Positions 10,705 through 59,794 of a stretch of DNA of 64,000 bases are shown piece after piece. Within the stretch, counting starts at the first letter, position 1; each line of letters begins with the position of its first letter. Made by a program: the position numbers and the translations under genes. Origin of the DNA: an uncultured archaeon (GTDB lineage: Archaea; Aenigmatarchaeota; Aenigmatarchaeia; QMZP01; JACQNV01); assembly GCA_964410585.1 (NCBI GenBank), contig CAYPFW010000001.1, positions 210,853 through 274,852 on the forward strand. The letters run 5' to 3'. The notes beneath the pieces were generated by a model. The model saw only the letters and a list, made by a program, of their open reading frames with translations, was not told where the DNA came from and did no database searches.

Positions 10705-10791
10705 TAGATTACACCTTTGTTTCCCCCAGAAAAAATAAAATAGTGTTTATCAATTGGTTCTGGTTAATAAATACTTTGGTAGACAAAGAAA

Positions 10792-11511
10792 TTAATCCTT
10801 AGCAGGTTTAACATCTATTCCAATCTCTTCTAATTTTTCCTTGAACTTTTTCAAAGCTCTGTGTATGTCTTCGATGCTGTGCGCACCTGTACAAATTATT
10901 TTTCCAGAACTAAACAATAGGAAAGCTACTCTAGGTTCAGAAATTCTGTAAACTAAACCTGGAAATTGTTCTGGCTCGTATTCTGCATTTTCAAGCATGA
11001 AGGCTATTTCTTCCAAATTTATTTTTGCATCTATCTTGCTTGAAGCGACAATATTTTCAATTATTATATCGAATTTTTTTGGAGTTTTTATCCCAACTTC
11101 GCTTATTTTTTCAGCGACTTTTTGCATTGCTGCTTTTGAATTCTCTATACTTTTTGCGCCTGTGCATACGATTTTCCCAGATGAGAATATCAAAGCTGCA
11201 GCCCTTGGGTTTTGTGGCCTGTAAACTAAACCAGGAAACTGTTCTGGCTCGTATTCTGTGTTTTCTATCTCTTCGACGAGTTTTTCTAATGCTATTGTTA
11301 TTCCTAAAGAAGCAAACGAAACAACATTTTCAACATTAATTGTGAATTCGCTCAACCTTTTTCCGCTAGCTGAAAAATTAGAATCTGTTTGTATTGGTTT
11401 TGAATCTGACTTTGTCTCAACTTGAGGCTTGCTGACTTCTTTTTTAGCAACCTTTGCTGGCTTAGCCGATTTCTTAGCAGGCTTAGAAACTTTCTTAGAT
11501 TTTTTGACCAT
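10792..11511 (-). CDS. tbp: TATA-box binding protein with a Lys/Ala/Pro-rich N-terminal extension of about 55 aa.
   Basis: Two direct repeats each contain EYEPEQFPGLVYR...SSGKI(V/I)CTGA, and the N-terminus reads MVKKSKKVSKPAKKSAKPAKVAKK... Confidence 0.9.
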   Translation of the reverse strand: MVKKSKKVSKPAKKSAKPAKVAKKEVSKPQVETKSDSKPIQTDSNFSASGKRLSEFTINVENVVSFASLGITIALEKLVEEIENTEYEPEQFPGLVYRPQNPRAAALIFSSGKIVCTGAKSIENSKAAMQKVAEKISEVGIKTPKKFDIIIENIVASSKIDAKINLEEIAFMLENAEYEPEQFPGLVYRISEPRVAFLLFSSGKIICTGAHSIEDIHRALKKFKEKLEEIGIDVKPAKD

Positions 11512-12459: not shown

Positions 12460-12471
12460 GTTTTGGCACAT

Positions 12472-21400: not shown

Positions 21401-24400
21401 TCTCAACAATTCCAACACAAAACACAACAGAAGATGTCTTATACCAATTCAATGTCACAGCATCAGATGATGATTTGATACACGGCGATAGTCTTACATA
21501 TTCAGTAAACGATTCAAGATTCTCAATATCAAAGATAAACAACACTTTGGCATCTTTGAATTTTACTCCAACAAACTCTGACGTTGGCTCATTTGTTGTC
21601 CAAGTAAATGTGACAGACACACAAAGTGTAACAGACGCAAAAACTTTCATAGTTAATGTTGCAAATGTAAACGATGCACCTGAATTCAATTCATCTACCT
21701 CATTAGCAAATGTTACTTTCAACGAAGATGGCTCTACATCACTTTCTTTGTCTCAGAGCTTCTTTGACATAGATGCAGGCGACAGTTTAACATATTCTGC
21801 TTCTGCAGTAGACAACATATCAGTTTCTATAAATCAAACAACAGGAGTTGCAACACTTGTCCCTAACCAAGATTTCTTTGGAACAAGGACAGTTACATTC
21901 AAAGCAACAGATTCACAGGGTGCAAATTCAACAGATTCAAATACAGTGACAATAACGGTTAATCCAGTTAACGATGCACCTGTTTTATCAGCATCTGTCA
22001 CAGATGTTTCATTCAATGAAGACGGTTCAAACAGCAGTCTAGATTTATCTAACTTCTTCACTGATGTTGACAATACAACTCTGGTTTACACAGCAGATCC
22101 TGTTGCAAACTTAACTATGAATATAGTTGGTTCTCAGGTAAACATTTCAGCTGATCCAAATTTCAATGGCCAGAGAAATGTCACATTCACAGCATCTGAT
22201 GGTGAGTACAATGTTTCAGATACAGTTTTAGTGACAGTGAATCCAGTAAACGATGCTCCAACTTCAACAACAATCCCAGATCAGAATATTACAGAGGATA
22301 CAAACTTCACATTTGATATTTCTCAATACTTCTCTGATGTAGATGCAGATTCTCTTACATTCAGTATAATATTGAATTCAACAAACATCTCAGCTTCAAT
22401 AAATGGAAGTATTGTTACATTGGAACCAAATTCAAACTTCTTTGGAACAAACACAATACAATTTAGGGCAAGCGATTCTCAACTAAGTGTAGATTCTAAT
22501 ACTGTCACACTAAATGTATCAGCAGTAAATGATGCTCCAACTGTTTTAGTCACACAACCAAATGGCGGAGAAATTTGGAATCAAAACCAAAACATAACAT
22601 GGTCAGCTTCCGATGTTGAAAATGACCCACTTTCAGTAAGCATATTTGCTTCAAATGATTCAGGCTCAACATGGAACCAAATAGACACAGGCTTGGCTAA
22701 TAGCGGTTTGTATATATGGAACACAACAAGCATCGCAGACGGATCATATTTAATAAATGTGACTGTATCTGATGGTTCTCTTACAACATCTGATTTGTCT
22801 GATGGTTTGGTTACTGTAGATAATACAGCTCCAGATGTAAATGTTGCCTTGACAGGACACAACAACTTGTTCATTGCTACTCTATCCAATGGACCATATG
22901 ATATACTAAATATGACATTTACTTCTAGTGAACCTGTTATATGGAAAACACCTTCAGGGGGAAACGGAATAAACATATACACTTCAAATGGATCATTAGA
23001 AAAATCTTTCACTTCGAACTCTTTGAGCCAAACACTGTTCAAGCAAATAGATTCAAGCACATTCTCTGGAGATGACGATATATACACAATAAATGTCACA
23101 ACAACTGATCAGGCCGGTAATAGCCAAACACAAACTGTTGGGAATTTCACTATCGACAACACACCACCATCAGTTAGCATCAGCGCATCTTCAACAACAA
23201 TAAACGAAGGGGAATCAATTTTCTTCAATGGATCTTCAACAACAGATAGTTCAGCTGGTGTTGACGCATCTTCGTTTGTTTGGAACTTCGGCGATAGCCA
23301 ATCAGCAACAGGACAAACAACCAATCACACATACTCACAAAATGGAACCTATACAGTGAGATTGAATGTCACAGACAATGTTGGAAACACAGGAACAAAC
23401 ACAATTGTTGTCACAGTAAATGATTTAGCTCCTACATCATCTTTCACATTTAGCCCTTCAACAGGAATATTTGAAAACACAACAACTGTACAGTTCAATT
23501 CAACATCAACAGGATATGATACACCTCTGACATATTTCTGGGACTTTGGTGATTTATCAACTTCAACACAGGAGAACCCAACACACGTTTTTGCAAACAA
23601 TGGAACATACACAGTAAACCTAACTGTGACAGATGCAGATGGATCGACAAACACAAGTTCGCAAACTGTATCAGTGAGTGACACAGGTCCCTCAGTTTCA
23701 ATATCTGGAACAGCATCTACATTCGTAGCCTCAACAGCATCATACAGTGCTTCTGGTTCAACTGGTTCAGACCAGCCATTCACATATGAGTGGGATTTCA
23801 ACTACACAGGAAGCTTTGATTCAGAACAAAACACAGGAACAACATCTTCAGTTGATCACACATTCAGCTCAACAGGCACATTTACAATCGCAGTGCGTGT
23901 GACAGATTCAGACGGATCCCAAAACATATCTTCAATGTCAACAACTGTCCAACCTGAGCAAACACACGACATAGTTGTAAATTCAGTTACATACAACAAA
24001 GCAGATTCAACTGTTTACATAGGAGACCAAGTAACTGTGTCAGCAAGTGTATCAAACATAGGAAATTTCAATGAAAGCGTTACTCTAAGATTATTTAATG
24101 GTGGAACAATAGATACAGAAACAGTTTCAATAACAAAGGGAGAAACAAAAACAGTCAACTTTACTTGGACACCTAGCTCAGAAAGCGGCGGAACAATTTT
24201 GAGAGTCGAAGCTCTTCCAGTTTCAGGAGAAACACAGCTTGGCGACAATTTGGCTACAGTACAGGGCTCGCCTATACCTGTTAGATCTGTTGTGCAAAAT
24301 GTAAACTTAACATTTGTTTCGGCAACAAACTTCCCTAAACCAAGTTCTTCTGGAAGTGAGACACAAAATCCATTCTTCGTTTGGGTAAAAATAGAAAACT

Positions 24401-24633
24401 TAAATGGATTTGACTTGAATGATTTAGTTTTGACAATAGGAAATGAAACTCTAACTGTGAATACAAACCAAGACGGATCAACAAGCACAACAAAAACATA
24501 CGACCCACTTGCAGCTGGACAATCAACATCTTTCTGGTGGAAATTAAACGCCGCATCTGGAACACATAATATTACAGCAAGAATTGGCAATGTTGGTGAT
24601 AGAGTCGAGATTTCAAGAATAGTGACTGTCTAA
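12472..24633 (+). CDS. Giant surface adhesin-like protein of about 4,053 aa. It has a signal anchor, N/S/T-rich repeats, several PKD-like domains (WNFGDG...NPTH), about 15 cadherin-like (dystroglycan-type / putative Ig) ~95-aa repeats, and five Ig-like repeats ending TETRT(L/F)xID. It also has a GSGGSGGGSGGSG linker and a C-terminal CARDB-like domain.
   Basis: A single 12.2-kb ORF. The track start is TTG at 12463, and the first ATG is at 12472. The repeat architecture was read directly from the translation. Confidence 0.9.
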   Translation: MSQKSNSSTRVAYIFLALLVFGLIAGAVAYPVQINISSNQAGFTTTTIVCGDPSCSSYTNSRQDIPTLTNSNGYSISGSGKVNYMELDYKACYLPHMYRLQMTDATTNGPYSVTRNFNQKSDCTSTVNTVQASNPSPFEKTTIQISTNVQGAVSFPKDANGNQFDFSMVSIPSDIKDFYDTKTKVVLKIKDSQGSVIYTSPEKEAYPLVNKSETVVFDYTPQIDGPFTAEIETQVTDCMCTSTQPITSSPVSFSVQDTDPVASFSFGTVIEGQDAQFTDTSTSNDGLTWEWNFGDGTALDTRQNPTHRFSKGGAHQVTLTVREADGDSNPKTQIVDVQNVNDNPIITATINPITLNEDFGTHEVVDLTTLESDEEDGPASDANNLRWSVVSVSDPSLIDVSIDVGSEKLSLVSKQDKFGTATVTLKLSDSQSGETTTSFNVQVNQQAETQGSTTTNTQVSADSVFTNSQGTNSNIQSSTVTGSTIIDSTVTNSNVQDSFIDPSTVSGSTIIRSRIVNSQVTNSNITDSNITNMQVSNAVVTNNVLQSGTIVYNGQTYTGSISLAEIQNTAPVSTQTVTQISWNEDSSDSSLNLNTQFSDPEGQTLSFSKTDPSNIQVSISANGQVTFTPDTNFNGQRSAQFTATDIFGKTVSISVTLNVISQNDQLSITTTAPTTGSQGLLYTYDIDASDIDGDQLTFTLQAGAPTGMTINPSTGLIQWTPTNNQVGNNQVTVLVSDGSTPIQQQFTISVSNANDAPSLSAISNQNIAEDSTLQFNVSADDPDLVYGDSLTYSINDSRFTITKISNTLATVSFSPTNSEVGTISVSVTVKDSQDLTITKTFSVLVSNTNDLPVLADVSNQNVLEDSTLQFNLTASDDDLIHGDSLTYTVNDSRFTVNKISNTLATVSFSPINSDVGTFSVQATVTDSSGQTSKKTFTVTVVNTNDAPTVTVLEPNGGELWNGIRQIKWTASDVDVGDILLVDIFTSVDGQVFQVLAENETNDGEFDWNTDQSSDSTNHKVRIEIKDGTTTVSDDSDSAFSLDNSVPNTVFASPNAGNYTSHQNITVTATDPNLQTISIYVNGLLASSSSTSPLVYLLTDGNHSVYAKANDTLGNSVQTETRNIFIDSVVPSVSFISPTPSTGLFANQNQTINITGTDNNLASVGITFVGEGSGGSGGGSGGSGASVGVSVNPGETTKTLSTTLSDGNYTYFGTARDILENNAQTETRTLFIDTINPTIQFENPTPANLATTNSNQIINVSGSDTNLVSIEIFVDGTLKNTCTSNLCSYSIDVSQLSDGPHTFNATIIDIVGSKTSTETRTLVVDKTAPSIQFVSPTPSDLSGVSGTKIINVTASDLSAFNIVIYIDGQNVTTCSSSLCSFEWNTTTFADGSHSINATSSDNVGNQNSTETRTFTIDNTAPSISLVSPANDTLSNSQTQNFIFAASDAIYTSVSCNLYINNNLSGSNSSVQSGVNTTITNTSVPEGTNTWYVQCADALGNTNTSEMRTLKTDYTSPQISSHSFSGLFPLTGVSDGGYFSPANTDGQFDSVSLTVNTSEEVIFGPQSIQIVNSSGQVVNSFDGPGETSRSILRTWFGNDSVGNILPDGEYTINITFTDLAGNTKTEILKNLEAVNDLFIIDNTPVNVILGNDRTVNEGALQTFDGSNSTDTGSEINTSSFVWNFGDSQSATGQTANHTYSQNGTYTVRLNVTDNVGNTGTNTIVVTVNDLAPTSSFTFSPSTGIFENTTTVQFNSTSTGYDTPLTYFWDFGDLSTSTQENPTHVFANNGTYTVNLTVTDADGSTNTSSQTLNILDNSPTANAGPDQTVNEGSIVFFDGSNSTSSPDSISSYFWDFGDGTNSTGQSVNHTYVNNNTYTVTLTVTDSDGSTNSDTLQVAVNDLGPTANFTWSPEPQDEDLPVQFNDTSTFVADNIVSWSWNFGDGSPINTTQNPTHVYGNQNTTRIFQVTLTIIDSDGSISSKSSNITINAVNDPPVVSTIPSIIFNEDSFNDSLVLSSFVSDVDNSVSEINWSSSPTQNLTISIDNTTKRLNVSAAPNWFGNETIVLTATDGQNQTQSNTITVIANSVNDAPVISTTAQTSATEDSLYSYDVNATDVESDTLLFTLESAPSGMTIDSSTGIISWTPNNTQVGSNNVSVQVSDGNSGIGEQNFTIVVANNAPIISNPGTQSATEDSQFSIDINSTDENEGLVFSLISPPSGMSINSTTGLISWTPTNTQVGTTTLNVSVDDAHGGTATTTFDINAGNNPTTITTNATTTATEDTLYTYDVNSTDEGQGDFFNLTTFPQGMTIDNSTGLISWTPLNNQVGSNNVEVEVDDGKGGSDTQAFSISVSNNPPLIATTALTSSTEDSLYEYDVNSTDEGQGLVYSLTTSPSGMTINQTTGMITWTPINSQVGINSVTVLANDTKSGTTTQSYSLIVSNNPPVFTSTAPTTATEDSEYLYDANSTDEGDGATFSLTTSPAGMTINSTTGLVNWTPLNNQVGSNSVVIRVNDGKGGQKSQSFSISVSNNPPTITSSAALNATEDSLYTYDVNSTDDGQGTITYSLALSPSGMTIDSSTGLISWTPLNNQVGTNNVSVQVSDGNSGVGEQNFTITVSNTNPTISSTASTTATENIQYTYDVNSTDDGQGTISYSLLSSVFGMSINQSTGLISWTPINTQVGPNNVSIQVSDGNGGTDTQNFTIVVANSNPTITSSPVVSVTEDSLYTYDVNSDEDGEGAISYLLLLLPSGMSINSTTGVITWTPTNEYVGPNNVSVQVSDGNGGVGEQNFTIVVANNPPIISDPGIQSATEDSLFTIDINSTDEGQGLLFYLESAPTGMTINETTGSVSWTPLNNQVGLNTVNVSVNDWQGGVSSLTFDINVLNNAPLITTNATISGVEDSLYTYDVNSTDEGQGATYNLTTFPQGMTIDNSTGLISWTPLNNQVGSNNVEVEVDDGNGGTNTQTFSISVSNTNDNPVLSTIPTQNTTEDVLYQFNVTASDDDLIHGDSLTYSVNDSRFSISKINNTLASLNFTPTNSDVGSFVVQVNVTDTQSVTDAKTFIVNVANVNDAPEFNSSTSLANVTFNEDGSTSLSLSQSFFDIDAGDSLTYSASAVDNISVSINQTTGVATLVPNQDFFGTRTVTFKATDSQGANSTDSNTVTITVNPVNDAPVLSASVTDVSFNEDGSNSSLDLSNFFTDVDNTTLVYTADPVANLTMNIVGSQVNISADPNFNGQRNVTFTASDGEYNVSDTVLVTVNPVNDAPTSTTIPDQNITEDTNFTFDISQYFSDVDADSLTFSIILNSTNISASINGSIVTLEPNSNFFGTNTIQFRASDSQLSVDSNTVTLNVSAVNDAPTVLVTQPNGGEIWNQNQNITWSASDVENDPLSVSIFASNDSGSTWNQIDTGLANSGLYIWNTTSIADGSYLINVTVSDGSLTTSDLSDGLVTVDNTAPDVNVALTGHNNLFIATLSNGPYDILNMTFTSSEPVIWKTPSGGNGINIYTSNGSLEKSFTSNSLSQTLFKQIDSSTFSGDDDIYTINVTTTDQAGNSQTQTVGNFTIDNTPPSVSISASSTTINEGESIFFNGSSTTDSSAGVDASSFVWNFGDSQSATGQTTNHTYSQNGTYTVRLNVTDNVGNTGTNTIVVTVNDLAPTSSFTFSPSTGIFENTTTVQFNSTSTGYDTPLTYFWDFGDLSTSTQENPTHVFANNGTYTVNLTVTDADGSTNTSSQTVSVSDTGPSVSISGTASTFVASTASYSASGSTGSDQPFTYEWDFNYTGSFDSEQNTGTTSSVDHTFSSTGTFTIAVRVTDSDGSQNISSMSTTVQPEQTHDIVVNSVTYNKADSTVYIGDQVTVSASVSNIGNFNESVTLRLFNGGTIDTETVSITKGETKTVNFTWTPSSESGGTILRVEALPVSGETQLGDNLATVQGSPIPVRSVVQNVNLTFVSATNFPKPSSSGSETQNPFFVWVKIENLNGFDLNDLVLTIGNETLTVNTNQDGSTSTTKTYDPLAAGQSTSFWWKLNAASGTHNITARIGNVGDRVEISRIVTV
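17499..17893 (+). repeat. Intragenic near-identical ~395-nt repeat, copy 1 (PKD-like segment).
   Basis: About 99% identical to 23270..23668. Confidence 0.85.
19375..19480 (+). repeat. Intragenic ~105-nt near-identical repeat, copy 1 (cadherin-like unit, FPQGMTIDNSTGLISWTPLNNQVGSNNVEVEVDDG).
   Basis: Near-identical to 21235..21340. Confidence 0.8.
21235..21340 (+). repeat. Intragenic ~105-nt near-identical repeat, copy 2.
   Basis: See copy 1. Confidence 0.8.
23270..23668 (+). repeat. Intragenic near-identical ~395-nt repeat, copy 2.
   Basis: See copy 1. Confidence 0.85.
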
Positions 24634-24673: not shown

Positions 24674-26596
24674 ATGAAAAATATTTTGAGTTTGGCAGTG
24701 GGCTTGATGCTCATATTATCTTTTGGTTTTGTTAGTGTAAACGCTCTTTCATGTTCAGATGTTACTTTTGATTATTCTCCATCAAATTTGGAAGCAAATT
24801 CAGCCTTTTCACTAAGGATAGCAAACAATAATCCTCCGGCACCTGATGATGCATGGGGAGATTTTGTAAGCGCAAATTTGACATTGTCTTCAGGCCTATC
24901 AACAACAAGCTCTCTAGACGTTGATTTAACACCTTCAATAGTTAGCACCCCATACAGCTGGACAAACATAGTAGCAAATTCAACTGGTTCATTTACCTCA
25001 ACGGTAACATTAACAAATGCAACAGGCTCTTGTTCAATAAATCAGAATCTTAATGTAGGTCCAGTTACAAATCCCAATTTAACTCTTTCTTCTACTCTTA
25101 GTAATTCAACGCCAGTAATAAACTCCCCATACACACTTACTGTAAATGTATCGAACACAGGAAATGAAAACGCAACATCAATAGTTATTACGGTTTCTGC
25201 TGGCGGAAATTCTACTATTACACCTTCTTCAAGATCTATTTCAAATCTACAAAATGGATCTAGTGAAAATGTAACATTTACTATCAACTCTCCTTCGTCT
25301 GGAACAAACATACAAATCACAACAACTGCAACATACAAAGATACTTCAAGTGTTTCAATGACAGACTCTACAACTTCCACAACAGTTAATGTGTCAGGAC
25401 ATCCTTTCACAGCAAACCAATCTAAAGTAATAGATGTTCAAGCTATTGCATCTGCTATTTTAACTATAACTACAAACACAACCACAGATCTAACAGAGTT
25501 TACAATAAGCAATTCGTCTTCAAATTCAGTTTCAGCACCTTCTGGAAAACTTGCCGCAGGAAGATATTTAACAGTAACTCTTCCTTCTTCATTTAGCTCA
25601 ACACTTGAAACAACATACCTAAAAATTTATTATCAACAATCAGAAATATCATCAAACAATATAAATGAAAATTCACTAGAAGTCAGAAAGCTTGTATCAG
25701 GCAATTGGGGAAGTCCTCTTACAGTTATTTCAAGAGATATAACAAACAACTTTATAGAAGTCAGCACATCAGGATTTTCAACATTTGGTCTATTCGGTGA
25801 TACAAATCCATCTTCTTCAAACAATAATCAGAATAGCGGAAGTGGAAATACAAACTCTGGAACAACATCTAGTGGAACTACACTTGCAAAACAATGTGCA
25901 GAGGCTGATTATTCTTGCTCATCTTGGACAGCGTGCACATCAGGTTCACAGACAAGAACATGTTCAAAGAAAACAGGCGTATCTTGTACAGGAGATGCGA
26001 CACCTGTAACAGCTCAAACATGCTCATTGACATGTACTCCTGACTGGGAGTGTACAGATTGGTCTGTTTGCTCTTCTTCAGGCTCTCAAACAAGATCATG
26101 TTCGGATAGAAAAGGTTGTGGTGTGAGCTCAGGAAAACCACACGAATCGCAAACATGTGGAGCCCCTAAATCGGAAGTGATAAGCTTCGATGGTGGTTTA
26201 ACAGGTTTCTTAGTTTCGCCTCCTATCCTACAATACAAAGCATCTGAAGGAGCATCTACTGTCTTTAAAGTAGATAACTCAGATCACACACTAACTGTTA
26301 AACAGGTCAAATCAGATTCAGTTATTTTGGTGATACAGTCAGATCCTGTTGAAATTGAAGTCAAAGCTGGAGAATCAAAATCAGTTAATATAGACGCTGA
26401 TCCTGAAAATGATATAACTGTCAGAATAAACTCAATTGAAAATGGTGTTGTCTTATTGACTGTTGATAAGGTATCTAACACAAACACAGAAACAGGAATT
26501 GGAGTTATTGTAATTGTTCTAGTCGCAGTTATTGGCTTTTATTTAACTAAAAGAAAAAAAGAAACATGGAAATTTGAAACTAAGCAAGCAAAATAA
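24674..26596 (+). CDS. Cell-surface protein with a signal peptide, duplicated Cys motif (CS[SD]W[TS].C[TS]SGSQTR[TS]CS), and a C-terminal transmembrane anchor with a basic tail.
   Basis: ORF track. The N-terminal hydrophobic segment and the C-terminal IGVIVIVLVAVIGFYLTKRKK support the anchoring call. Confidence 0.6.
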   Translation: MKNILSLAVGLMLILSFGFVSVNALSCSDVTFDYSPSNLEANSAFSLRIANNNPPAPDDAWGDFVSANLTLSSGLSTTSSLDVDLTPSIVSTPYSWTNIVANSTGSFTSTVTLTNATGSCSINQNLNVGPVTNPNLTLSSTLSNSTPVINSPYTLTVNVSNTGNENATSIVITVSAGGNSTITPSSRSISNLQNGSSENVTFTINSPSSGTNIQITTTATYKDTSSVSMTDSTTSTTVNVSGHPFTANQSKVIDVQAIASAILTITTNTTTDLTEFTISNSSSNSVSAPSGKLAAGRYLTVTLPSSFSSTLETTYLKIYYQQSEISSNNINENSLEVRKLVSGNWGSPLTVISRDITNNFIEVSTSGFSTFGLFGDTNPSSSNNNQNSGSGNTNSGTTSSGTTLAKQCAEADYSCSSWTACTSGSQTRTCSKKTGVSCTGDATPVTAQTCSLTCTPDWECTDWSVCSSSGSQTRSCSDRKGCGVSSGKPHESQTCGAPKSEVISFDGGLTGFLVSPPILQYKASEGASTVFKVDNSDHTLTVKQVKSDSVILVIQSDPVEIEVKAGESKSVNIDADPENDITVRINSIENGVVLLTVDKVSNTNTETGIGVIVIVLVAVIGFYLTKRKKETWKFETKQAK

Positions 26597-48846: not shown

Positions 48847-49617
48847 ATGATAAACATCAAACCAATATACGTCGGCATAGATTTGCACGGCACTTTGCTG
48901 AACAAAAATGAAGAAATAGAAGAAAGATTTCATAGGCCTCTTGAGGATGCCTTGAAAAAACTGAAAACAAAAGCCAAAATCTATGTTTGTTCTGGGAATG
49001 ATTTGCCTTTTGTGAAAGAGGTTTTACCGAAAGATATATTTGAGCTGTTTGATGGTTTTGTGTTGGAAACTGGATGTGTTTTTTCTGATGGGAAAACCGA
49101 GGTTGTAAAAACTCCAGAAAGCGTGCAACAGAAAGCCCATGAATTAAGGAAGGAATTGGAACAGAAGGGGTTCTCAGAAGTCAACGAGTTTAGACGAAGG
49201 CTGACAACTGTTTCTTTGTTTTGTTCAAGCCCAAAAGAGTTTGTTAAAAAAGTAGAAGGGTTTGTGCAAAAATCAGTATACAGAAACGATTTTTCTGTAA
49301 CATATTCAAGCGTGGCTGTTGATGTGATTCCAAAAGGATGGGACAAGTTCATGGGTATGCAAAAACTGGCAGGAGAAAACACCATAATTGGGATTGCAGA
49401 TTCGATGAATGATTTTGAATTTTTGGCTAAATCGGATTTTTCGTTTGTTCCAGCCAACGCGCCGAAAGAGGTTTTGGAGAAGTTGGAAAAGGAAAGGAAG
49501 AGTATTGTTAATTTGGAAAAAATGAATCAATTAGAAAAAAACATTATCGGAAAGGCCAAAAACCAAGAGACTGAAGGAGTGTTGGAGATATTGGATTTTA
49601 TCCAAACAGCGATTTAA
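48847..49617 (+). CDS. HAD-superfamily hydrolase, Cof/IIB-like.
   Basis: Motif I GIDLHGTLL, with the second Asp replaced by His; motif IV GIADSMND. Confidence 0.55.
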   Translation: MINIKPIYVGIDLHGTLLNKNEEIEERFHRPLEDALKKLKTKAKIYVCSGNDLPFVKEVLPKDIFELFDGFVLETGCVFSDGKTEVVKTPESVQQKAHELRKELEQKGFSEVNEFRRRLTTVSLFCSSPKEFVKKVEGFVQKSVYRNDFSVTYSSVAVDVIPKGWDKFMGMQKLAGENTIIGIADSMNDFEFLAKSDFSFVPANAPKEVLEKLEKERKSIVNLEKMNQLEKNIIGKAKNQETEGVLEILDFIQTAI

Positions 49618-51070
49618 AAATTCCTCTGGCTATTAGGCCTGCTGTTGTTGGTGTAACATCTTCACCATTTACATAAATTTTAGAACCTTCTCTACATGCC
49701 CCTATTGTATCTATACCACTTCTAACATACACAACAGCGCGCCTGATGCCACCAACTGTACCATAAACATGTCCGTCAACTCTTAGCTCACTTTTTGGAT
49801 CTGAATCAGTTGAGTGAAATGGACCAACTCCAAGTATATTTCCTCTAAGATCTCCACCTATTTCACAAGTAAAATGTCCTTGATGATGATGTTTTGCAAC
49901 ATCTCCCCTAACACTTCCTCTAACTATAATTTTTGTTCCATAACTGCCCTGACTACTAACAACATCGCCTACAACATCGCCATCAACTATAATTTGACAG
50001 TTTCTACAATCATACTCTACAAGACCTTCCACATTTCCCCTAACTCTTGTTGTGCCTCCCTGTTGCCCAAATCCCACCAATGCTCTTTCTGATGCACTTC
50101 CTATAACTATGTCTCCACCTTTCATTCCAGTTCCAACTTGACTATTCAAAACGCGGCCTCTGACATCTACAAGACCTCCTGATTTTCCATATCCTATTAA
50201 AGTGTGTGAAACATCTTTGTGAAATATGGTTTCCCCTCCAGATTGGTGAGCGGCTAACCCCTCTTCAGAAAGGCTCGGGAAATCACAAAAAACTTCTATC
50301 TTCCCCCCTTCCTGCCAACCACCGAAAGTGTTTTGGAAACCATCACATGCATACGTTGAATAGAGGCTATCTTTAAACCGATAGACAACGGCATGCCCGT
50401 CTTTCATGCGGTGTAGTATTAACAAAGGTACAGGTCCTTTGAACTCTATTGTGCCGCCTTCCAAATGACCTCCAGACCAATTACCTACTTCTCCTTCGAA
50501 AATAACTTTGGCTCCTTTTTTAAGATGCTGTGCACAGCCATCGCCAACATTACCCTTTACAATAACTGTGCTGTTCCTCAAAAAAGAGCAAACATTTGAC
50601 GGGCGTCCATATTCTCTGGCTCCATTCCAATCAGTATCATAAAGAAGTTCATATCCACATTCTTTTTCTGAAAGTATTCCAGATGAAATATCGGCATCAA
50701 AAGACTGCTTACTAGGTGTTGCATCTAAAACTATTTCTTGTCCTGGCTTAAGTTTGCTATCTAGAAGAGCAGAAAACTGAACACCCAATGCACTCTTGCC
50801 GCCAAGCCAATATCTTCTTCTAAAGTATCTTGAAAGATGTTCAGGAGAACATCTTATGTCCGAAACAGCATCTTTTGTTTCCCTATATACTTCTTCAGGG
50901 TCTTCTCCAGACGATTTTTCGAAAGCTTGATTTATTTGGTCTTCTACATAAGCAAAATGTGAATCCTCTGTTACAGGAACAACCACTCGACCAGAATCTT
51001 TTCTTCTTTGGCGCGCTTTTTCCTCAACTTTTTTTATTTCGTCTTCACTTACATCAAAATCATTTTTCAT
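49598..51070 (-). CDS. GXGXG-motif beta-helix protein, paralogue 1 (GltB C-terminal domain / FwdC-like repeats), with a ~170-aa N-terminal domain.
   Basis: Repeats GNVGDGCAQHLKKGAKVIFEGEVGNWSGGHLEGGTIEF fit the GxGD..G...M.GG.I.V.G.AG pattern. Confidence 0.6.
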   Translation of the reverse strand: MKNDFDVSEDEIKKVEEKARQRRKDSGRVVVPVTEDSHFAYVEDQINQAFEKSSGEDPEEVYRETKDAVSDIRCSPEHLSRYFRRRYWLGGKSALGVQFSALLDSKLKPGQEIVLDATPSKQSFDADISSGILSEKECGYELLYDTDWNGAREYGRPSNVCSFLRNSTVIVKGNVGDGCAQHLKKGAKVIFEGEVGNWSGGHLEGGTIEFKGPVPLLILHRMKDGHAVVYRFKDSLYSTYACDGFQNTFGGWQEGGKIEVFCDFPSLSEEGLAAHQSGGETIFHKDVSHTLIGYGKSGGLVDVRGRVLNSQVGTGMKGGDIVIGSASERALVGFGQQGGTTRVRGNVEGLVEYDCRNCQIIVDGDVVGDVVSSQGSYGTKIIVRGSVRGDVAKHHHQGHFTCEIGGDLRGNILGVGPFHSTDSDPKSELRVDGHVYGTVGGIRRAVVYVRSGIDTIGACREGSKIYVNGEDVTPTTAGLIARGIFKSLFG

Positions 51071-51080: not shown

Positions 51081-52469
51081 TCAGTCTCCCAATAATTTTT
51101 TAAAAATTCCTCTGGCTATTAGGTTTGCAGTTGTTGGTGTAACATCTCCTCCGTTTTCATAAACTCTACAACCTTCGCTACATTTTTCTAGCCTCTCTAT
51201 TTTTCTCCCAACATGGACATCGGCCCAATTCAAATAGCCAACTGTTCCATAAACAGATTTGTGAACTGTTATCTGGCTTTTTGGACCAGATGAACTACCA
51301 TATCCTACATATTGTATGTTTCCTGTTACATTGCCTTCGATTGTACATGTTATATATTTCGAACCGCGACCGACATCGCCTTTAACATTTCCGTGGACAG
51401 TTATATCCACACCATTGTCCCCTCTTCCACCAACATTTCCAGTTACATCACCACCAACAATTATTGTACAACCAGAGCTGCCTTCGCTTATATTAGCTCT
51501 TGCACTGCCTTTAACATGAATTGTTCCACCAAGTGTTCTTTCTCCAACAATTCCTTCTTGAACACTTCCCAAAACTATTTCTCCACCAGTCATTTTATAA
51601 CCTATTTTACATCTAATAGCTCTTTTCACACTGATGTCTCCATACTCCTTGTTAGGCCCTATACTACAGTCAGTTACCGTCCCATGAAAATTAATTTCTC
51701 CTCCTTTCTGACATGCTCCGATAGAACTACTCTGGGTTAACATAGAAACATCGCACATGACATCTATTTTACCTTCTTCCTGATTTGCACCAAATGAGGA
51801 ATATGGATATGGTTCATTCTTAAATTGATGAACTATTGCGTGACCATCTTTCATGCCTTTAAGTATATCGGTTTCTGCAGGGCCCCTAAATTCTATTTCT
51901 CCTCCATCTAAAAAATTGCCGGAATCCTTTTCAGATTCACCTTCAAAAATAACTTTTGCTCCTCGTTTGACGTGTTGGGCTGCACACTCTCCAGAATTTC
52001 CTTTTATTGTCACTGTTCCTCTTTCTAAAAAAGAGCAGACGTATTTGAGGCTATAAGGATCATTAATTGTCCTTGCATCTAAAAATATTTCTTCCCCCTC
52101 TCTAAGCATTCTATTAAGAAGAGATGAGAAAAAAATACCCAATTGACGAGAATCTGGGCCAGCGTCTGCTTTTCTTTTGAAATATCTTGACAATTCTTGA
52201 GATGGGAAATGTGGCAATGTAGAAACACATCTTCTTGCTCTTTCATACACGTCTTGTGATCCCCAATCACCAGATATTCTATCATCTAAACTATCTCTGC
52301 CTTCTATAAATCTTTTGAATGCTGAATCTATTTGATCTTCAATATAATCTAAGTGAGAATCGTCTGTTACTGGTTTGACAATTCGACCAGATTGTGTCCT
52401 TTTATCACGTGCTTTTCCAATAACATCTTCTATTTCATCCTTTGTGACATCAAAATCAGAATTCGTCAT
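51081..52469 (-). CDS. GXGXG-motif beta-helix protein, paralogue 2.
   Basis: Start at MTNSDFDV (52469), which makes an ATGA overlap with the upstream stop. The track ORF extends to 52553 (MENKCATCGG...). Confidence 0.6.
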   Translation of the reverse strand: MTNSDFDVTKDEIEDVIGKARDKRTQSGRIVKPVTDDSHLDYIEDQIDSAFKRFIEGRDSLDDRISGDWGSQDVYERARRCVSTLPHFPSQELSRYFKRKADAGPDSRQLGIFFSSLLNRMLREGEEIFLDARTINDPYSLKYVCSFLERGTVTIKGNSGECAAQHVKRGAKVIFEGESEKDSGNFLDGGEIEFRGPAETDILKGMKDGHAIVHQFKNEPYPYSSFGANQEEGKIDVMCDVSMLTQSSSIGACQKGGEINFHGTVTDCSIGPNKEYGDISVKRAIRCKIGYKMTGGEIVLGSVQEGIVGERTLGGTIHVKGSARANISEGSSGCTIIVGGDVTGNVGGRGDNGVDITVHGNVKGDVGRGSKYITCTIEGNVTGNIQYVGYGSSSGPKSQITVHKSVYGTVGYLNWADVHVGRKIERLEKCSEGCRVYENGGDVTPTTANLIARGIFKKLLGD

Positions 52470-53422
52470 CCTTGGAGTTTCCAGACGACCTTGCCGCCTG
52501 CCTTTGTTATAGCCTCTGTTATTTCCCCCGCACGTTGCACACTTATTTTCCATTTAATTTCATCATAAGCAGACCTATACGAAGATGGGCTCAAAACAGG
52601 ATGAGCCTTCCTCAAAAACAAGCGCACCTCATCTTGATTAACGTCTGAAAAAGCGGCTTCTTCTCTTCTAGATGCTTCAAGTTCTCCAGATGTTTGTGCA
52701 AGTTGTGCGGCCACCCTTGGTTGTAAATCTCTTTCTAGAAGAACATACACTTTTGCAAGTGTAATTTTTGCAACATGTTTTTCTGGAAGCGATAAATTGT
52801 GTGGTTCTTTTGCCTTATCTAAAATAGCTGGGAGAAGGGTTCTTGTTCTATCGATTCTTGCAGGCAAAGTTATGCCTTCTTGAACTAATCTTTGAACTTC
52901 AACACTAGCTGTCATGTCTGCCGAATAATCATTTTTAAGCCTTGCAACTTCATGTGGTGAATGGCTTCTGTCAGATTGTATGTTGGCATCCAAATCACCG
53001 ATTAAATCCAACATTGCTTCTTTGTTGTCTGCAATGTATTGTTTAGCATCTAACCAATGCTGTCTTTTGTCTTCTAATTCTTTAGCTTTTTTGCCTGCTC
53101 TAAAACAACCATAAAATCTTCTAATTTTTCCTGGATCAAAGTAAGAAGCTATGCGATTTATTTCAGGGTTCGAAGAAAATTGTGCAATCGCTGCAAAACC
53201 TCCGACTATTTGAACTGTGAGCTCTAGATATCTTTCCATATCTCTTTCTGGATCTAATCGATCTGCTTCATCGATATACACTTGAATATGCGCGTGGCAG
53301 TGTTCATTTAGAAGGGCGAAAAACCCGTTGCCGTCGACACCACCGGCTGTTCTTGCTTGCTCTAATCTTTTCCTCAATGCCTCTCCTTCATTTCTGACTC
53401 TTCTGTATACATCTTCTTCCAT
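52466..53422 (-). CDS. Hypothetical alpha-helical protein of about 318 aa.
   Basis: The track ORF runs to 53494. The start MEEDVYRRV at 53422 avoids overlapping the upstream gene. Confidence 0.45.
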   Translation of the reverse strand: MEEDVYRRVRNEGEALRKRLEQARTAGGVDGNGFFALLNEHCHAHIQVYIDEADRLDPERDMERYLELTVQIVGGFAAIAQFSSNPEINRIASYFDPGKIRRFYGCFRAGKKAKELEDKRQHWLDAKQYIADNKEAMLDLIGDLDANIQSDRSHSPHEVARLKNDYSADMTASVEVQRLVQEGITLPARIDRTRTLLPAILDKAKEPHNLSLPEKHVAKITLAKVYVLLERDLQPRVAAQLAQTSGELEASRREEAAFSDVNQDEVRLFLRKAHPVLSPSSYRSAYDEIKWKISVQRAGEITEAITKAGGKVVWKLQG

Positions 53423-54143: not shown

Positions 54144-54461
54144 AGAAACAATAAACTATTTATCTTCAAGATTTATAAGAACAATTGGTATCCTAAACAT
54201 AAGGTTTGTTAAGTCTCTTTTTTTTTGCCATGTTCGATAGAAAATATCGAATTTTGTATCTTTTTTAGAATCTGCTTTACTAAAACAAGTAAATATTCAA
54301 ACATATACTCTAAAATATGTTTTCTAGATTTTATGCTTTGTTGAAAACCAATATATAGAAGACCAAATTCTTGTGAAATTCTCTATTCAAGAGAATCAAA
54401 CTAATTTATTTTAGAAAATATATTGAAACAAGTATAATAGAAAATATTTAATTTGATAGTT

Positions 54462-54492
54462 CTTTTTTAATATATATTATATAGAATATATC
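54462..54492 (+). repeat. Left copy of an imperfect direct repeat, TTTTAATATATATTATATAGAATATA.
   Basis: Matches 59284..59312 at about 26 of 28 positions. Confidence 0.45.
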
Positions 54493-54604: not shown

Positions 54605-54931
54605 TTAAAGAGAACAAGAATATTTACCTATTAATTCGCTTGGACAATCTCCTCTTCTAAGAACATCAAGCAATTCATCCATCTCACTTTGTTCAAGCAC
54701 GTATCCTGGAGAAATATTACGCAATTCTGTGCCTATTTGCACGATTACACTATAACATCTTATCGGAAAACCACTTTCGTTTTTTGCGAAATAAACACTT
54801 GCTCTCACTCTTCTTCCACAAATATTACTTGAAAAAGGACCTGCTTCAGCGAAAAAATCTTCTCGACTAAATCTCCTTACCATCCCAGAATTTGGGGAAG
54901 CTCTTTTATTAAGTTTTAGCCTGTCTTGCAA
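54605..54931 (-). CDS. Hypothetical 108-aa protein.
   Basis: ORF track only. Confidence 0.3.
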   Translation of the reverse strand: MQDRLKLNKRASPNSGMVRRFSREDFFAEAGPFSSNICGRRVRASVYFAKNESGFPIRCYSVIVQIGTELRNISPGYVLEQSEMDELLDVLRRGDCPSELIGKYSCSL

Positions 54932-55403
54932 TCTCAGCAGCTATTTGATCATCGAAGTCCTTGGCTATTCTTTTTGTGCGCCGCACATGTGCATTAATTT
55001 GTGACTGGGCTCTGTCGACTAGTTGGTTAATCGTCGGAGAGGCAAGGGAATAGCCTTTCATAAATTGGTCTGGAGTATCTCTGACTGGGATTTTGATAAA
55101 CTCTAGAAGCCCCAAAGTCCGCCATTTGCGGATTTCCTCGTATGATTGGGAAACAGAGACTTCGAGGATTTTGGCTATTGTTTCGATTGTCAAGGGTGTA
55201 TTTGTTTTTCTAGAATGCAAAAGGAACTTCAAAAGCGCAGCATGATTTGCTCGACTTTGCTTTCTTTGGAGACCTAGCCTTTGCACAATTACCTCAGCCA
55301 TGTCGTCTATTGAAAGAGAGAGCTTGTAGTCTGGAGGATTGACCTCTTTTAAGACGATGTCTGCCAACTTTTTATACATATAGAGAACCAATGTCTCTCT
55401 CAA
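54909..55403 (-). CDS. Putative HTH DNA-binding protein of 164 aa.
   Basis: TIETIAKILEVSVSQSYEEIRKW segment. Confidence 0.4.
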   Translation of the reverse strand: MRETLVLYMYKKLADIVLKEVNPPDYKLSLSIDDMAEVIVQRLGLQRKQSRANHAALLKFLLHSRKTNTPLTIETIAKILEVSVSQSYEEIRKWRTLGLLEFIKIPVRDTPDQFMKGYSLASPTINQLVDRAQSQINAHVRRTKRIAKDFDDQIAAEIARQAKT

Positions 55404-55879: not shown

Positions 55880-56932
55880 TCACACTATTGAAGTTTTCAA
55901 AAACTCCACAAGATCGGGTTGTATATAATTGTTTACTGTTACTGCTATATGCTCTTTCCAAATGTTTTCTTTTTTCACAAATTTTTTATGACCCAAATCA
56001 GAAGCAATTGAAAGAAAAAGAGAATTCACTTGCTCTTTTGTTGGTTTTTTTGTCCTTTTTATAAAATCCTTGACTTGAGAAGTTGCGTAGTGAGACCTTA
56101 CTATATGTGGATAGAACTCTTTTCCACAATACTTTTTGAAGGCTTTTTTGAAATGAGACTCTTTCATCGGATGACCATTTTCGCCGACAAAAACAAAAGA
56201 GTCTCTGTTGAGCGGTTTTAGTAGGGAATTCAGCCTTTTAGCATAAACTTCAGGAAATTGTTTTGTCGTTTTTATTGGGACCCCATCTTTCCCTATAAAA
56301 TCAAAAGTGACATTGTTCCCATTTATTGAAATGTCTTTTTTCTTGAGAGTTGTCAAGCCTTTGTGACCATGTGCCTTATAGTAAATTTCATTTCCAACTC
56401 TTATGTGTGTTTGGAGGAGAGTATACATTGGCAAAGCAAATCTGTCTTTCTCATCTTTAAGTGCTTTTTCGACTCTTTTTTTCAACCTTGGATATTCCTT
56501 TTCAAACTCCTCAACTTTTTTGTATTTTTTGTCTTTGTTTGCTTTTCTTTTTTCTAAAGTGTATACATAGGAAAATGTACCGCCTTTGTTTTGATATAGG
56601 ACATCCCAGTGATCGTGTGTTTGCTGATCGTGGATTGTCAAGTGAGGGGCAAAAAGGGAGAAAGCCTTGTCTAAAACACTTCCGTCAGGGAGTATGTTTA
56701 TTCTAGCCCCTTGAGGAAGACCTTCTGGGGAAAGTTGGCCCTTTAGAAAGAAGGAATCTTTTTTGTCTACTAAATCCTTAAACCTGCCATTTTTTTGGAA
56801 GAGATGAATTACAATCATCGCTTCTGGGAGGGGTTTATTTGATCCTTTCCATCCTGTTAGTGTTTTTTCTACAACTGACATATCTTTCCTTATTCTGATT
56901 GTGCCAACTGGTATTGGTTTTTCTTTTTTCAT
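55880..56932 (-). CDS. Type IB DNA topoisomerase (poxvirus/bacterial-size, 350 aa).
   Basis: The sequence carries RVGNE, GLTTLKKKDI...FDFIGKDGV, HIVRSHYAT, DLGHKK and VNNYIQP. These match the TopIB catalytic pentad R-K-R-H-Y and vaccinia GLLTLKNKHI...FVGKDKV. Confidence 0.75.
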   Translation of the reverse strand: MKKEKPIPVGTIRIRKDMSVVEKTLTGWKGSNKPLPEAMIVIHLFQKNGRFKDLVDKKDSFFLKGQLSPEGLPQGARINILPDGSVLDKAFSLFAPHLTIHDQQTHDHWDVLYQNKGGTFSYVYTLEKRKANKDKKYKKVEEFEKEYPRLKKRVEKALKDEKDRFALPMYTLLQTHIRVGNEIYYKAHGHKGLTTLKKKDISINGNNVTFDFIGKDGVPIKTTKQFPEVYAKRLNSLLKPLNRDSFVFVGENGHPMKESHFKKAFKKYCGKEFYPHIVRSHYATSQVKDFIKRTKKPTKEQVNSLFLSIASDLGHKKFVKKENIWKEHIAVTVNNYIQPDLVEFLKTSIV

Positions 56933-56956: not shown

Positions 56957-57130
56957 TTAACAGTCAAATTTTTCACCACATTTTACGCATTCTATTTCTA
57001 CTGGCCCTCTGCGTAAACCAAAAATATAATTAATTTCTTTTTTCTTTGCTCTCTTCTCCAATTCTTCATTTCGAAAGCACCCTGAATCTATTACTGGTAT
57101 TTTACACTTTGGACAATTTTTGTTTTTCAT
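56957..57130 (-). CDS. Zinc-ribbon protein of about 57 aa (CPKC...CVKC); coordinates approximate.
   Basis: Hand translation MKNKNCPKCKIPVID...ECVKCGEKFDC. The ATG directly abuts the stop of the upstream zinc-ribbon gene. Confidence 0.35.
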   Translation of the reverse strand: MKNKNCPKCKIPVIDSGCFRNEELEKRAKKKEINYIFGLRRGPVEIECVKCGEKFDC

Positions 57131-57469
57131 CTAAAACTCCTTTTCACAGCTTTTACAGTGCCATTTTGGGTAGTACTCTACAACTTTACAACCCCCAAAT
57201 TCCACTTTTCCTTCTTTTTTTAGTAATTCGGCTTCTTTTGAAGGCAAACCATATAGTATTGGAATCACATCAAAGGATTCGCACTTTGGACACTTTTCAT
57301 GTGGCTCATAATAGCCTTCTTTTCCAACAGGTGTTCTAAACTCCTTAAAACACCTCCAACACATCCACCAATTGTAGTTATAAAAATCTTCTTTGAAAGT
57401 ATTTTTTGGTACGTTGTCTGTTTTTACTTTATCTGTCTTTTTACATTCAGGGCAAGCCTCTTTTTTCAT
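57131..57469 (-). CDS. Double zinc-ribbon protein of 112 aa with four CxxC pairs.
   Basis: ORF track; CPEC, CWRC, CPKC, CKSC. Confidence 0.45.
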   Translation of the reverse strand: MKKEACPECKKTDKVKTDNVPKNTFKEDFYNYNWWMCWRCFKEFRTPVGKEGYYEPHEKCPKCESFDVIPILYGLPSKEAELLKKEGKVEFGGCKVVEYYPKWHCKSCEKEF

Positions 57470-57777
57470 CAGACAAACTCGCCCTCCTTTATGCGTTTTT
57501 CCAATTGAGCCAAAACCTTTTCATATTCTTTTTCCAAGTCGACTTTGTAGTGTTCAGAAAGCATGTAAAAATCAAATAAAATATCACAAAGGGAATCGAC
57601 TAAATCTGCTTTTTGGCGCCCTTTGTTTTTGAAGCCTTCTTTGACTAGAACTGCATTTGAGAGCTCGCCTACTTCTTCTGCGAGGTCAACAACCATTGCT
57701 TCTGGTGTCCATTTTCTAAGTCTCACCTTTTCAAACTGCTTCAAAAGTTCCTTTGTTTTTAGTTGCATTTTGTCCAT
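57469..57777 (-). CDS. MazG-like nucleoside triphosphate pyrophosphohydrolase domain protein.
   Basis: LAEEVGEL motif; helical, about 100 aa. Confidence 0.5.
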   Translation of the reverse strand: MDKMQLKTKELLKQFEKVRLRKWTPEAMVVDLAEEVGELSNAVLVKEGFKNKGRQKADLVDSLCDILFDFYMLSEHYKVDLEKEYEKVLAQLEKRIKEGEFV

Positions 57778-58749: not shown

Positions 58750-59079
58750 CTAAGAAGGCTGAGTTTCCTTTCCAGCTTTCTTTTTTTGCTTTTCTAAATT
58801 GTCCTCAAGTTGCTGGAATTTTTTCATGATTGCTTCGAGGTTGTGGGCGACGTCCCAACCATCGTCTGTAAGTCTCACTTTTTTGATCCTACCTGTTTTT
58901 TCGAACTCAACAAGACCCAATTTTTTCAAAGTATTGAGGATTTTTATTGTATGAGAATAGGTGCAGTCTGCTTCTTTTGAAAGAATTGTCGCGTAAATGG
59001 CTTCTTCTTTTCGCGTTTTTAGGCCTAAGAAAATCTTCGCCGGCTTTTCTCTCAAAAACAATTCGTCCAATAATGTCAT
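58750..59079 (-). CDS. Winged-helix transcriptional regulator of 109 aa.
   Basis: CTYSHTIKILNTLKKLGLVE HTH followed by a wing; GGGAGG ribosome-binding site. Confidence 0.5.
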   Translation of the reverse strand: MTLLDELFLREKPAKIFLGLKTRKEEAIYATILSKEADCTYSHTIKILNTLKKLGLVEFEKTGRIKKVRLTDDGWDVAHNLEAIMKKFQQLEDNLEKQKKKAGKETQPS

Positions 59080-59283
59080 TTTGAGCCTCCCTATCTCGAT
59101 TAAGAATTTACTTGTAGTAGAGTGTCAACTCTCACTTTCTGTAAAACTATTGGTTCGTTGGTTTAAATACTTTATTGTATGTTTCTTGATAGGTACTTTC
59201 TATTATATGTTTTTAATTATATTTGTTTATTTAGTCATATTAGATAATAGCTTATCTATTATATTTTTTATAATATATTTGTT

Positions 59284-59312
59284 TTAATATATATTCTTTA
59301 GAATATAATAAT
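59284..59312 (+). repeat. Right copy of the imperfect direct repeat, TTTTAATATATATTCTTTAGAATATA.
   Basis: See the left copy at 54462..54492. Confidence 0.45.
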
Positions 59313-59794
59313 TTTAAAATTTTTGAAAGTGAGGGTTCTATGTGTATATAACAGTGTTATATATATGACCAATAGGTTTGGGGTGAAAAGTGAGAGTAAA
59401 AGGGAGAGTAAATTTGAGCATTTCAAATGACAAAAAGTAGCACCGATAATCCCCACGATAAAAGTGAGTATATTTTTCAAAGGTGAGAGTTAAAACAAAT
59501 AAAGACGATCTAGATACTAAACAAAACCAACAATATATATGAAAGGGAATATTAGTTTGAAGTGAGAATTGTATTTAAACTTGATCGCAAAACTAGAATG
59601 TCGGTTTTTAAGGTCTTGAAAGTATACAGAGGAAAAGTGGAGTTTAGCAAAAATAGTTAGGAAATTGAACCAGTATACAATAAATGTACATAGATTCCCT
59701 CCCTAAAGTGAGGGAACAGTTAGTATGCACTCATCCTTAATGCGATACAAAAATTAAAATCAACAAATACCTATTATTAAAAACAAATAATAGT

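Follow-up and report, generated by a model that had tools for sequence, protein, structure and literature searches.

In archaea, type IB DNA topoisomerase (TopIB) has been described as a long-form enzyme that is limited to Thaumarchaeota and their relatives (Dahmane et al. 2016, PMC4824112), and a 2021 review of archaeal topoisomerases lists DPANN without TopIB (PMC8185306). According to Forterre (2025, PMC12395588), Topo IB is absent from non-BAT archaea, with few exceptions such as some Asgard, and the short form of the enzyme is known only from bacteria and Nucleocytoviricota. Two reports come closer to the gene analysed here: Badel, Da Cunha and Oberto (2021, PMC8371274) named an archaeal "TopoIb_2" family that contains the PF01028 domain only and whose origin they link to viruses or bacteria, and Li et al. 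(2021, PMC8407114) devote one sentence to IB-type topoisomerases in metagenome-assembled genomes (MAGs) of thermal Aenigmarchaeota. The literature searched contains passing mentions of this kind only, and nothing on the breadth, structure or biochemistry of the clade. The gene in question occupies positions 55880..56932 on the minus strand of a 64,000-nucleotide stretch of DNA from an uncultured archaeon (contig CAYPFW010000001.1), hereafter the window. Its product is a genuine TopIB, a member of a conserved branch of TopIBs that has hardly been described and that hundreds of very small DPANN archaea encode in their chromosomes. The explanation that we favour, with a probability of roughly 85%, is that the gene encodes an active chromosomal TopIB of a distinct clade conserved across DPANN archaea, in a host that is Aenigmatarchaeota-like, with the enzymatic activity predicted by homology.

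The open reading frame (ORF) runs from ATG to stop and comprises 350 codons plus the stop codon; an identical protein is encoded, in the same local gene order, on contigs of three independent sequencing runs. A Pfam search matches residues 129-322 to PF01028 (Topoisom_I) at 65.1 bits (curated cutoff 23.7; E=7.8e-18), and the same model matches 120 of the 120 members of a family alignment that consists of the window protein and 119 homologues. In the window protein, PF00589 (Phage_integrase) reaches 19 bits and stays below its cutoff of 27.1. A phmmer search against the PDB sequences identifies TopIBs only (D. radiodurans 2f4q, 3e-8; Caldiarchaeum 6z01, 7e-8; variola 2h7f, 4e-5). The AlphaFold2 model, built from the 120-sequence alignment, has a pLDDT of 95.3 and a pTM of 0.86, and a Foldseek search of PDB started from this model yields TopIBs as all of the top 21 matches, with E from 1e-12 to 5e-8; the best are the bacterial structure 3m4a (1e-12) and variola 2h7f (1.2e-12), and Caldiarchaeum 6z01 and many human TOP1 entries are found as well. 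The catalytic domain proper comprises residues 126-350 (55883..56557, minus strand), for which the Foldseek matches to TopIBs range from 1e-12 to 1e-9. The poxvirus enzyme superposes with a root-mean-square deviation (rmsd) of 4.3 Å over 266 columns and human TOP1 (1k4t) with an rmsd of 3.1 Å over 233 columns; the tyrosine recombinases XerH and XerA rank behind the TopIBs, at 7e-5 to 3e-3. When viral models are searched instead, the best full-length matches are the TopIBs of the phages Motura and PaBG, followed by TopIBs of giant viruses and poxviruses. The match to the TopIB family lies far beyond chance. An earlier, sequence-only reading of the window had called the product a small TopIB and had proposed to contrast Topoisom_I with tyrosine-recombinase models and to superimpose a predicted structure on the vaccinia enzyme; the profile, alignment and structure evidence all agree with that call.

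The identity of the family is barely visible in the databases. No NCBIfam model matches the window protein, and because none recognises it, NCBI names members of the family "hypothetical protein" almost everywhere; one name in nr is "tyrosine-type recombinase", and only JGI calls one family member "DNA topoisomerase IB". This annotation gap spans hundreds of genomes, and the practical gain of the assignment is an annotation fix.

The active site was examined in a MAFFT alignment with Shinella and Burkholderia replicon proteins annotated as DNA topoisomerase IB, a Sphingobacterium TopIB and a vaccinia TopIB, the last of which is a 314-aa sequence with R130, K167, R223, H265 and Y274 at their published positions. 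In this alignment, R178, K215, R279, H315 and Y336 of the window protein share columns with these five vaccinia residues, and the annotated bacterial TopIBs have R, K, R, N and Y in the same columns. All five residues are invariant in the 120 sequences of the family. The first catalytic arginine, R178 (codon 56399..56401, minus strand, as for all residues below), belongs to the motif RVGNE (residues 178-182), and the catalytic lysine K215 (56288..56290) to FDFIGKDGV (210-218), with GLTTLKKKDI (192-201) between the two. The second arginine, R279, lies in the segment H276-I-V-R279 (56096..56107) of HIVRSHYAT (276-284), where it follows a histidine that is specific to the clade. The catalytic histidine H315 (55988..55990) is part of DLGHKK (312-317), and the nucleophile Y336 (55925..55927) of VNNYIQP (333-339). 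The sequence-only reading had quoted these motifs and assigned the catalytic Arg, Lys, Arg, His and Tyr to them, and each assignment is correct by alignment with the vaccinia and bacterial enzymes. The best PDB match of the family profile is the Caldiarchaeum TopIB 6z01 (57 bits), in which R, K and R are aligned and the histidine of LNHKR (LNHK) corresponds to H315 of LGHK.

Several features set the clade apart from the TopIBs described so far. The N-terminal, cap-like domain (residues 1-125; 56558..56932) is clade-specific and, in the model, beta-rich with two short helices; modelled alone with AlphaFold2, it has a pLDDT of 91. It is 125 residues long, compared with about 80 in the poxviral and bacterial enzymes, and the Pfam models for N-terminal domains of TopIBs match none of the 120 members; these include PF09266 (VirDNA-topo-I_N) and PF21338 (Top1B_N_bact), the latter of which does match bacterial proteins, including the nearest bacterial-type relatives of the clade. 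A segment of about 46 residues (about 35-80; 56693..56830) stands out in the MAFFT alignment as extra sequence compared with the Shinella, Burkholderia, Sphingobacterium and vaccinia proteins; it includes helices 36-47 and 51-54 of the model and has no bacterial or poxviral counterpart. Within the domain, W28, W109 and Y124 are invariant. Only the last hairpin and the motif Y122-x-Y124 at the domain junction (56561..56569) align with the poxviral and bacterial enzymes. This motif, in which Y124 is found in all 120 members and Y122 in 118, corresponds to Y70/Y72 of vaccinia TopIB, the hinge tyrosines that contact DNA; the role of the equivalent hinge tyrosine in short TopIBs has been described (PMC8748870). 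The new cap domain as a whole might likewise contact DNA.

The second clade-specific feature is a basic beta-hairpin (residues 316-330; 55943..55987) between the catalytic His and Tyr, which contains a 12-residue insertion. Its strands are formed in the model by residues 316-319 and 324-327, and W325 is present in all 120 members. The window protein has a resulting His-to-Tyr spacing of 21, and each of the 24 clade members examined has one of 20-21, compared with 9 in the vaccinia and bacterial references. In other TopIBs the spacing is mostly 9-10, with 15 in P0230 and 23 in P0235, and it reaches 51-83 in the long-linker forms. The site of the insertion is the linker position of the eukaryotic and BAT enzymes, and the hairpin may serve as a small-scale equivalent of the eukaryotic linker and touch the DNA downstream of the nick. 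The third feature is residue 276, which is His in 117 of the 120 members as opposed to Lys (K220 in vaccinia) in 64 of 69 other TopIBs. With H276, the tyrosine-recombinase hexad is complete in the family (R178-K215-H276-x-x-R279-H315-Y336), and sub-threshold PF00589 matches are detected at E<=0.01 in 31 of the 120 members (best 1.3e-6). H276 therefore accounts for the recombinase-type H-x-x-R motif, for these sub-threshold matches and for the database name that refers to a recombinase; in the reaction itself, it would keep the catalytic function of the usual Lys. Finally, the C-terminus is short: 35 residues follow the catalytic His, and the protein ends 14 residues past the catalytic Tyr.

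Among the known types of the enzyme, the DPANN protein can be compared first with the short bacterial TopIBs (DraTopIB, PDB 2F4Q/3M4A, and the Shinella, Burkholderia and Sphingobacterium proteins). These are similar in size, at about 340-360 aa, have the same catalytic-domain fold (Foldseek E 1e-12), carry R, K, R and Y in register, share the RxGNE, GLTTL and GK motifs and the Y-x-Y hinge, and likewise lack a coiled-coil linker. The identity between the two groups is just 23-26%, however, and many bacterial TopIBs have Asn in place of H315. The bacterial enzymes also have Lys in place of H276, a His/Asn-to-Tyr spacing of 9 instead of 21 and a tail of 40-60 aa past the Tyr instead of 14 aa. The poxvirus enzyme (vaccinia and variola, PDB 2H7F/1A41) aligns exactly over the catalytic pentad, retains the His as in DPANN and matches in fold at 1.2e-12, but its N-terminal domain is 80 aa long compared with 125 aa, it lacks the 12-residue hairpin, it has K220 where DPANN proteins have H276, and no other sequence is as distant in the neighbour-joining tree described below (mean distance 3.1). 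The long BAT and eukaryotic form, exemplified by Caldiarchaeum CsTOP1 (6Z01) and human TOP1, includes the best PDB match of the family profile (6Z01) and the human enzyme superposed on the model above, and its linker occupies the topological position between His and Tyr that the insertion takes in DPANN. The DPANN enzyme is nevertheless devoid of the Topoisom_I_N cap (PF02919), the coiled-coil linker and Topo_C_assoc (PF14370), and its 350 aa compare with 520-770 aa in the long form. The TopIBs of Achromobacter phage Motura and Pseudomonas phage PaBG in BFVD match the model with E 6e-16 and a query TM-score (TMq) of 0.63-0.65 over about 330-350 columns; these proteins are 541-606 aa long and 18-20% identical to the DPANN enzyme. 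The TopoIb_2 family and the Aenigmarchaeota IB-type enzymes are archaeal, possess only the central PF01028 domain, and a viral or bacterial relationship has been described for them. Compared by description only, they are probably the same family as the DPANN clade; the breadth of the clade in DPANN, its N-terminal domain, the hairpin and the H-x-x-R motif are described in neither paper (PMC8371274, PMC8407114).

When a single genome per GTDB species is scanned with two peptide patterns (80 loci listed), at least 197 species genomes prove to carry the gene, under the labels Woesearchaeota, Nanoarchaeota, Aenigmatarchaeota and Iainarchaeum. Two of the 80 listed loci lie on complete chromosomes (OY970338.1 and CP070804.1), of which one is a Woesearchaeota chromosome of 1.84 Mb and one an Aenigmatarchaeota chromosome of 742 kb. 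A protein search yields 690 homologues at E<=0.001. The best 120 of these are all about 350 aa long, and their identity to the window protein is 55-64% in 118 cases and 79% and 46% in the other two; where the source is named, it is Woesearchaeota, Aenigmatarchaeota, Nanoarchaeota or just "archaeon". The sequence-only reading did not expect such an enzyme in archaea other than Thaumarchaeota; this matches the published view (PMC4824112, PMC12395588) but is contradicted by the sequence data from across DPANN. Genes for a DPANN-type TopIB with 53-59% identity are also found in GTDB-representative MAGs that bear bacterial labels, namely Campylobacterales, Omnitrophota, Planctomycetia/Planctomycetales, Ratteibacteria and Paceibacterota (loci L016, L017, L039, L044, L047, L048, L049, L071, L077 and L083). 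In L077, labelled Paceibacterota, a gene for an RFC-like clamp loader adjoins that of TopIB, which suggests that this label is doubtful and that wrong labels or mis-binning are involved; the neighbours in the remaining bacterial-labelled MAGs are uninformative.

The clade is sharply separate from other TopIBs. When 1.84 billion cluster representatives are searched exhaustively with HMMER, 23 clusters lie below 1e-30, followed by a gap until about 1e-13, from where on the alignments are limited to residues 115-320. The family profile hidden Markov model gives at least 220 bits for members of the clade and at most 85 bits for all other proteins. A neighbour-joining tree was computed for 90 catalytic domains over 225 columns; all 100 of 100 bootstraps recover the clade as monophyletic, and its stem is the longest internal branch (0.59 compared with a median of 0.05). 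The clade is about equidistant from the bacterial-type and the other TopIBs in this tree, so that no donor lineage is apparent. Across DPANN chromosomes, the distribution is wide and mostly lineage-coherent. Aenigmatarchaeota-labelled TopIBs group together (nearest-neighbour permutation test, p 0.0065), and the identity of the window TopIB to its successive homologues (79, 64, 63 and ~58%) runs parallel to that of the MCM helicase encoded in the window (90, 72, 71 and ~65%). This MCM (8614-10623, minus strand) is archaeal, and its best named homologues, with 63-72% identity, are all from Aenigmatarchaeota. Judged by MCM, the host resembles Aenigmatarchaeota, and the DPANN-like context proposed in the sequence-only reading is borne out. 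Many close homologues of this MCM are about 1100 aa long and contain intein-type Hint and LAGLIDADG domains, which the window copy does not have.

By homology, the enzyme would be expected to close around duplex DNA as a monomeric clamp. Y336 is expected to attack one strand, giving a covalent 3'-phosphotyrosyl intermediate, with R178, K215, R279 and H315 stabilising the transition state and the Lys protonating the leaving 5'-O. The free 5'-OH end would then swivel, so that positive or negative supercoils could be relaxed without ATP or Mg2+, and the nick would be resealed after strand rotation. These steps are proposed because of the homology and the invariant active site. In the small genomes of these archaea, the role of such an enzyme may be to ease the torsional stress of replication and transcription. 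The gene is of an ordinary kind, with a lineage and details that are unusual: it is a core-like chromosomal DPANN gene that encodes a distinct structural variant. Many DPANN symbionts carry gyrase too (PMC9348778), and the TopIB would add to the known toolkit of these reduced, energy-poor organisms a predicted ATP-independent relaxase for positive and negative supercoils. The new cap domain, the small insertion at the linker site and the Lys-to-His replacement provide handles on the control of strand rotation and on the divergence of TopIBs and tyrosine recombinases.

Several observations weigh against the interpretation of the protein as an ordinary, vertically inherited swivelase of DPANN chromosomes. 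The N-terminal domain taken alone has no fold match in PDB (best E 0.43), and because it has no detectable structural relative, the clamping of DNA is predicted from the architecture alone. The figure of 197 genomes, which comes from a scan limited to two peptide patterns and 80 listed loci, is a raw count rather than a normalised prevalence among DPANN genomes. The window TopIB is equidistant from homologues with Aenigmatarchaeota labels (0.565) and with Woesearchaeota or Nanoarchaeota labels (0.57) while MCM points to Aenigmatarchaeota, and transfer within DPANN is therefore possible. In the window, the gene is located within a stretch of lineage-specific ORFans (49.6-59.1 kb), with neighbours that have no Pfam matches. 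The replacement of Lys by His at position 276, together with the sub-threshold PF00589 matches, leaves room for recombinase-like chemistry or site specificity. Taken further, the last point would make the protein a site-specific tyrosine recombinase or resolvase on a TopIB-like scaffold rather than a general swivelase, a possibility that is compatible with the full hexad, with the PF00589 matches in about a quarter of the family and with the one database name, and that gains from the precedent of poxvirus TopIB, which is sequence-specific and able to resolve junctions in vitro. The sequence-only reading would have seen such an enzyme in the hexad R-K-H-R-H/W-Y combined with best matches to recombinases; the hexad R-K-H-R-H-Y is indeed present in the family, but the best profile and fold matches are still to TopIBs. 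The catalytic fold is common to the superfamily, and within it XerA (5HXY) and XerH (5JK0) match at least seven orders of magnitude more weakly than TopIBs, PF01028 far exceeds its own cutoff where PF00589 falls short, and the motifs follow the TopIB pattern and not that of tyrosine recombinases (RVGNE, GKDG, S/T-x-x-Y-I-x-P and the Y-x-Y hinge are TopIB signatures). In addition, the SAM-like core-binding domain of recombinases (PF02899/PF13495) is found in none of the 120 members, the N-terminal domain being beta-rich instead, no conserved recombination site or element adjoins the gene, and Woesearchaeota and Pacearchaeota encode separate recombinases of the XerA/XerC type according to a published supplement (PMC8371274). 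A recombinase is accordingly a very unlikely identity for this protein. Even less room is left for the setting envisaged in the sequence-only reading, in which a mobile element carries the gene as cargo and the gene is of virus or plasmid origin, acquired by recent horizontal transfer; this we regard as extremely improbable. The idea probably stems from the co-directional run of ORFans, and it can further draw on the occurrence of short TopIBs in viruses and on bacterial megaplasmids and on the repeats around the gene: an imperfect AT-rich direct repeat of 47 nt with 79% identity (54444-54490 and 59261-59307) and an inverted repeat of 31 nt with 81% identity, in repeat regions (54416-54490 and 59194-59321) that bracket a 4.8-kb block with the TopIB gene. 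The repeats are weak and situated in AT-rich intergenic DNA, however, and most likely are similar promoter-rich AT tracts, not att sites. No tRNA gene is found in the window, and no integrase or transposase among the ORFs scanned between 45.8 and 63.5 kb (part of the window ORFs), where the only PF00589 signal is the sub-threshold match of TopIB itself; the flanking ORFs have no PHROG match, and the only PADLOC match is a weak Csa3-like one (5e-6) to the neighbouring orf164. The composition of the gene (GC 0.354, GC at third codon positions 0.316, codon distance 0.205) is within the range of the housekeeping genes of the window. The genes next to TopIB in the window are missing at 77 other loci and on the closest large contigs (L004 and L087), and no neighbour family found elsewhere occurs in more than 7 of the 77 loci; the neighbours there are variable housekeeping genes, such as those for RNase HII, HIT, SET, ArgRS, PyrBI and ribosomal proteins L16/L10e on one inspected contig and those for diphthamide synthase, eIF5A, deoxyhypusine synthase, ribosomal proteins and RpoK on a second one. 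A peptide-pattern scan of IMG/VR contigs finds no close relatives, a tblastn search of 50,697 phage genomes gives nothing at E<=1e-3 and only weak matches (E>=0.1) when the threshold is raised to 10, and plasmids contain only bacterial TopIBs that are 23-26% identical. A recent import would be nearly identical to its donor; the nearest homologues are 79% and then at most 64% identical, in an MCM-like ladder, and the spread over at least 197 species genomes and more than 100 protein clusters at 55-64% identity also speaks against it.

The favoured reading, a conserved chromosomal TopIB of DPANN archaea, is compatible with a different and older involvement of viruses, namely that an early DPANN ancestor gained the clade from a virus or another mobile element, after which it was inherited mostly vertically. 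This scenario, which concerns the origin only, is a tentative one. It would fit the long isolated stem and the lack of a resolved sister among cellular TopIBs, and the phage TopIBs that are the best full-length matches among viral models (about 340 columns for Motura and PaBG). It would also fit a distant relative, P0235, a 384-aa protein encoded at 10001-11155 of a 26-kb metagenomic contig (L090, Logan SRR20069395), which is the only distant relative with both H-x-x-R and the His-to-Tyr insertion. An hhalign comparison of P0235 with the family profile gives a probability of 98.5% and 26% identity, with the alignment extending through the insertion. Its contig consists of co-directional ORFans throughout and looks virus-like, so it could be that of a virus or other mobile element, but it has no Pfam or PHROG match and thus no viral hallmark from these sources. 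Moreover, P0235 is not the sister of the clade in the neighbour-joining tree, the phage TopIBs share no more than 18-25% identity and have tblastn E-values of at least 0.1, and the methods used do not settle the deep branching order. An equally doubtful but more far-reaching possibility is that the DPANN enzyme is a third structural class of TopIB, beside the short bacterial/viral and the long eukaryotic/BAT classes, that was present in an early DPANN ancestor and is distinguished by its own cap, by a hairpin that is possibly a proto-linker and by a recombinase-type H-x-x-R motif that is possibly intermediate between the states of tyrosine recombinases and of canonical TopIBs. If this is the case, TopIB would belong to the core enzymes of a second major radiation of archaea, and the TopIB-based scenarios on the archaeal root and on the origin of eukaryotic TOP1 would need revision.

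In the window, the gene is part of a co-directional, tightly spaced run that consists of a MazG-like ORF, two zinc-ribbon ORFs, TopIB, a membrane ORF and two small ORFs. The MazG-like pyrophosphohydrolase ORF (102 aa) and the zinc-ribbon ORFs (112 and 57 aa) are located directly upstream of TopIB (56957-57777, minus strand). The stop and start codons overlap or abut upstream of TopIB, which suggests co-transcription; the MazG/zinc-ribbon/TopIB arrangement is not kept in other genomes. Putative winged-helix proteins are encoded on both sides of the TopIB block, namely orf164 (54909-55403, minus strand) and a 109-aa ORF (58750-59079, minus strand), the latter with weak winged helix-turn-helix matches in Pfam and a DnaD-like match in PHROGs.

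Elsewhere in the window, a giant ORF of 4056 aa (12463-24633, plus strand) is immediately followed by an ORF of 640 aa that contains a CARDB domain (24674-26596, plus strand). Both have a codon distance of 0.31-0.33, unlike the housekeeping set, and probably encode large surface proteins of a kind that is common in DPANN genomes. Two tandem paralogues of 490 aa (49598-51070 and 51081-52553, both minus strand) share nucleotide blocks that are 71-77% identical; neither Pfam nor PHROG nor PADLOC gives a match for them. With the downstream ORFs of 342 and 239 aa, the pair makes up a stretch that is slightly GC-richer (0.39-0.40) and shows a strong negative GC skew.

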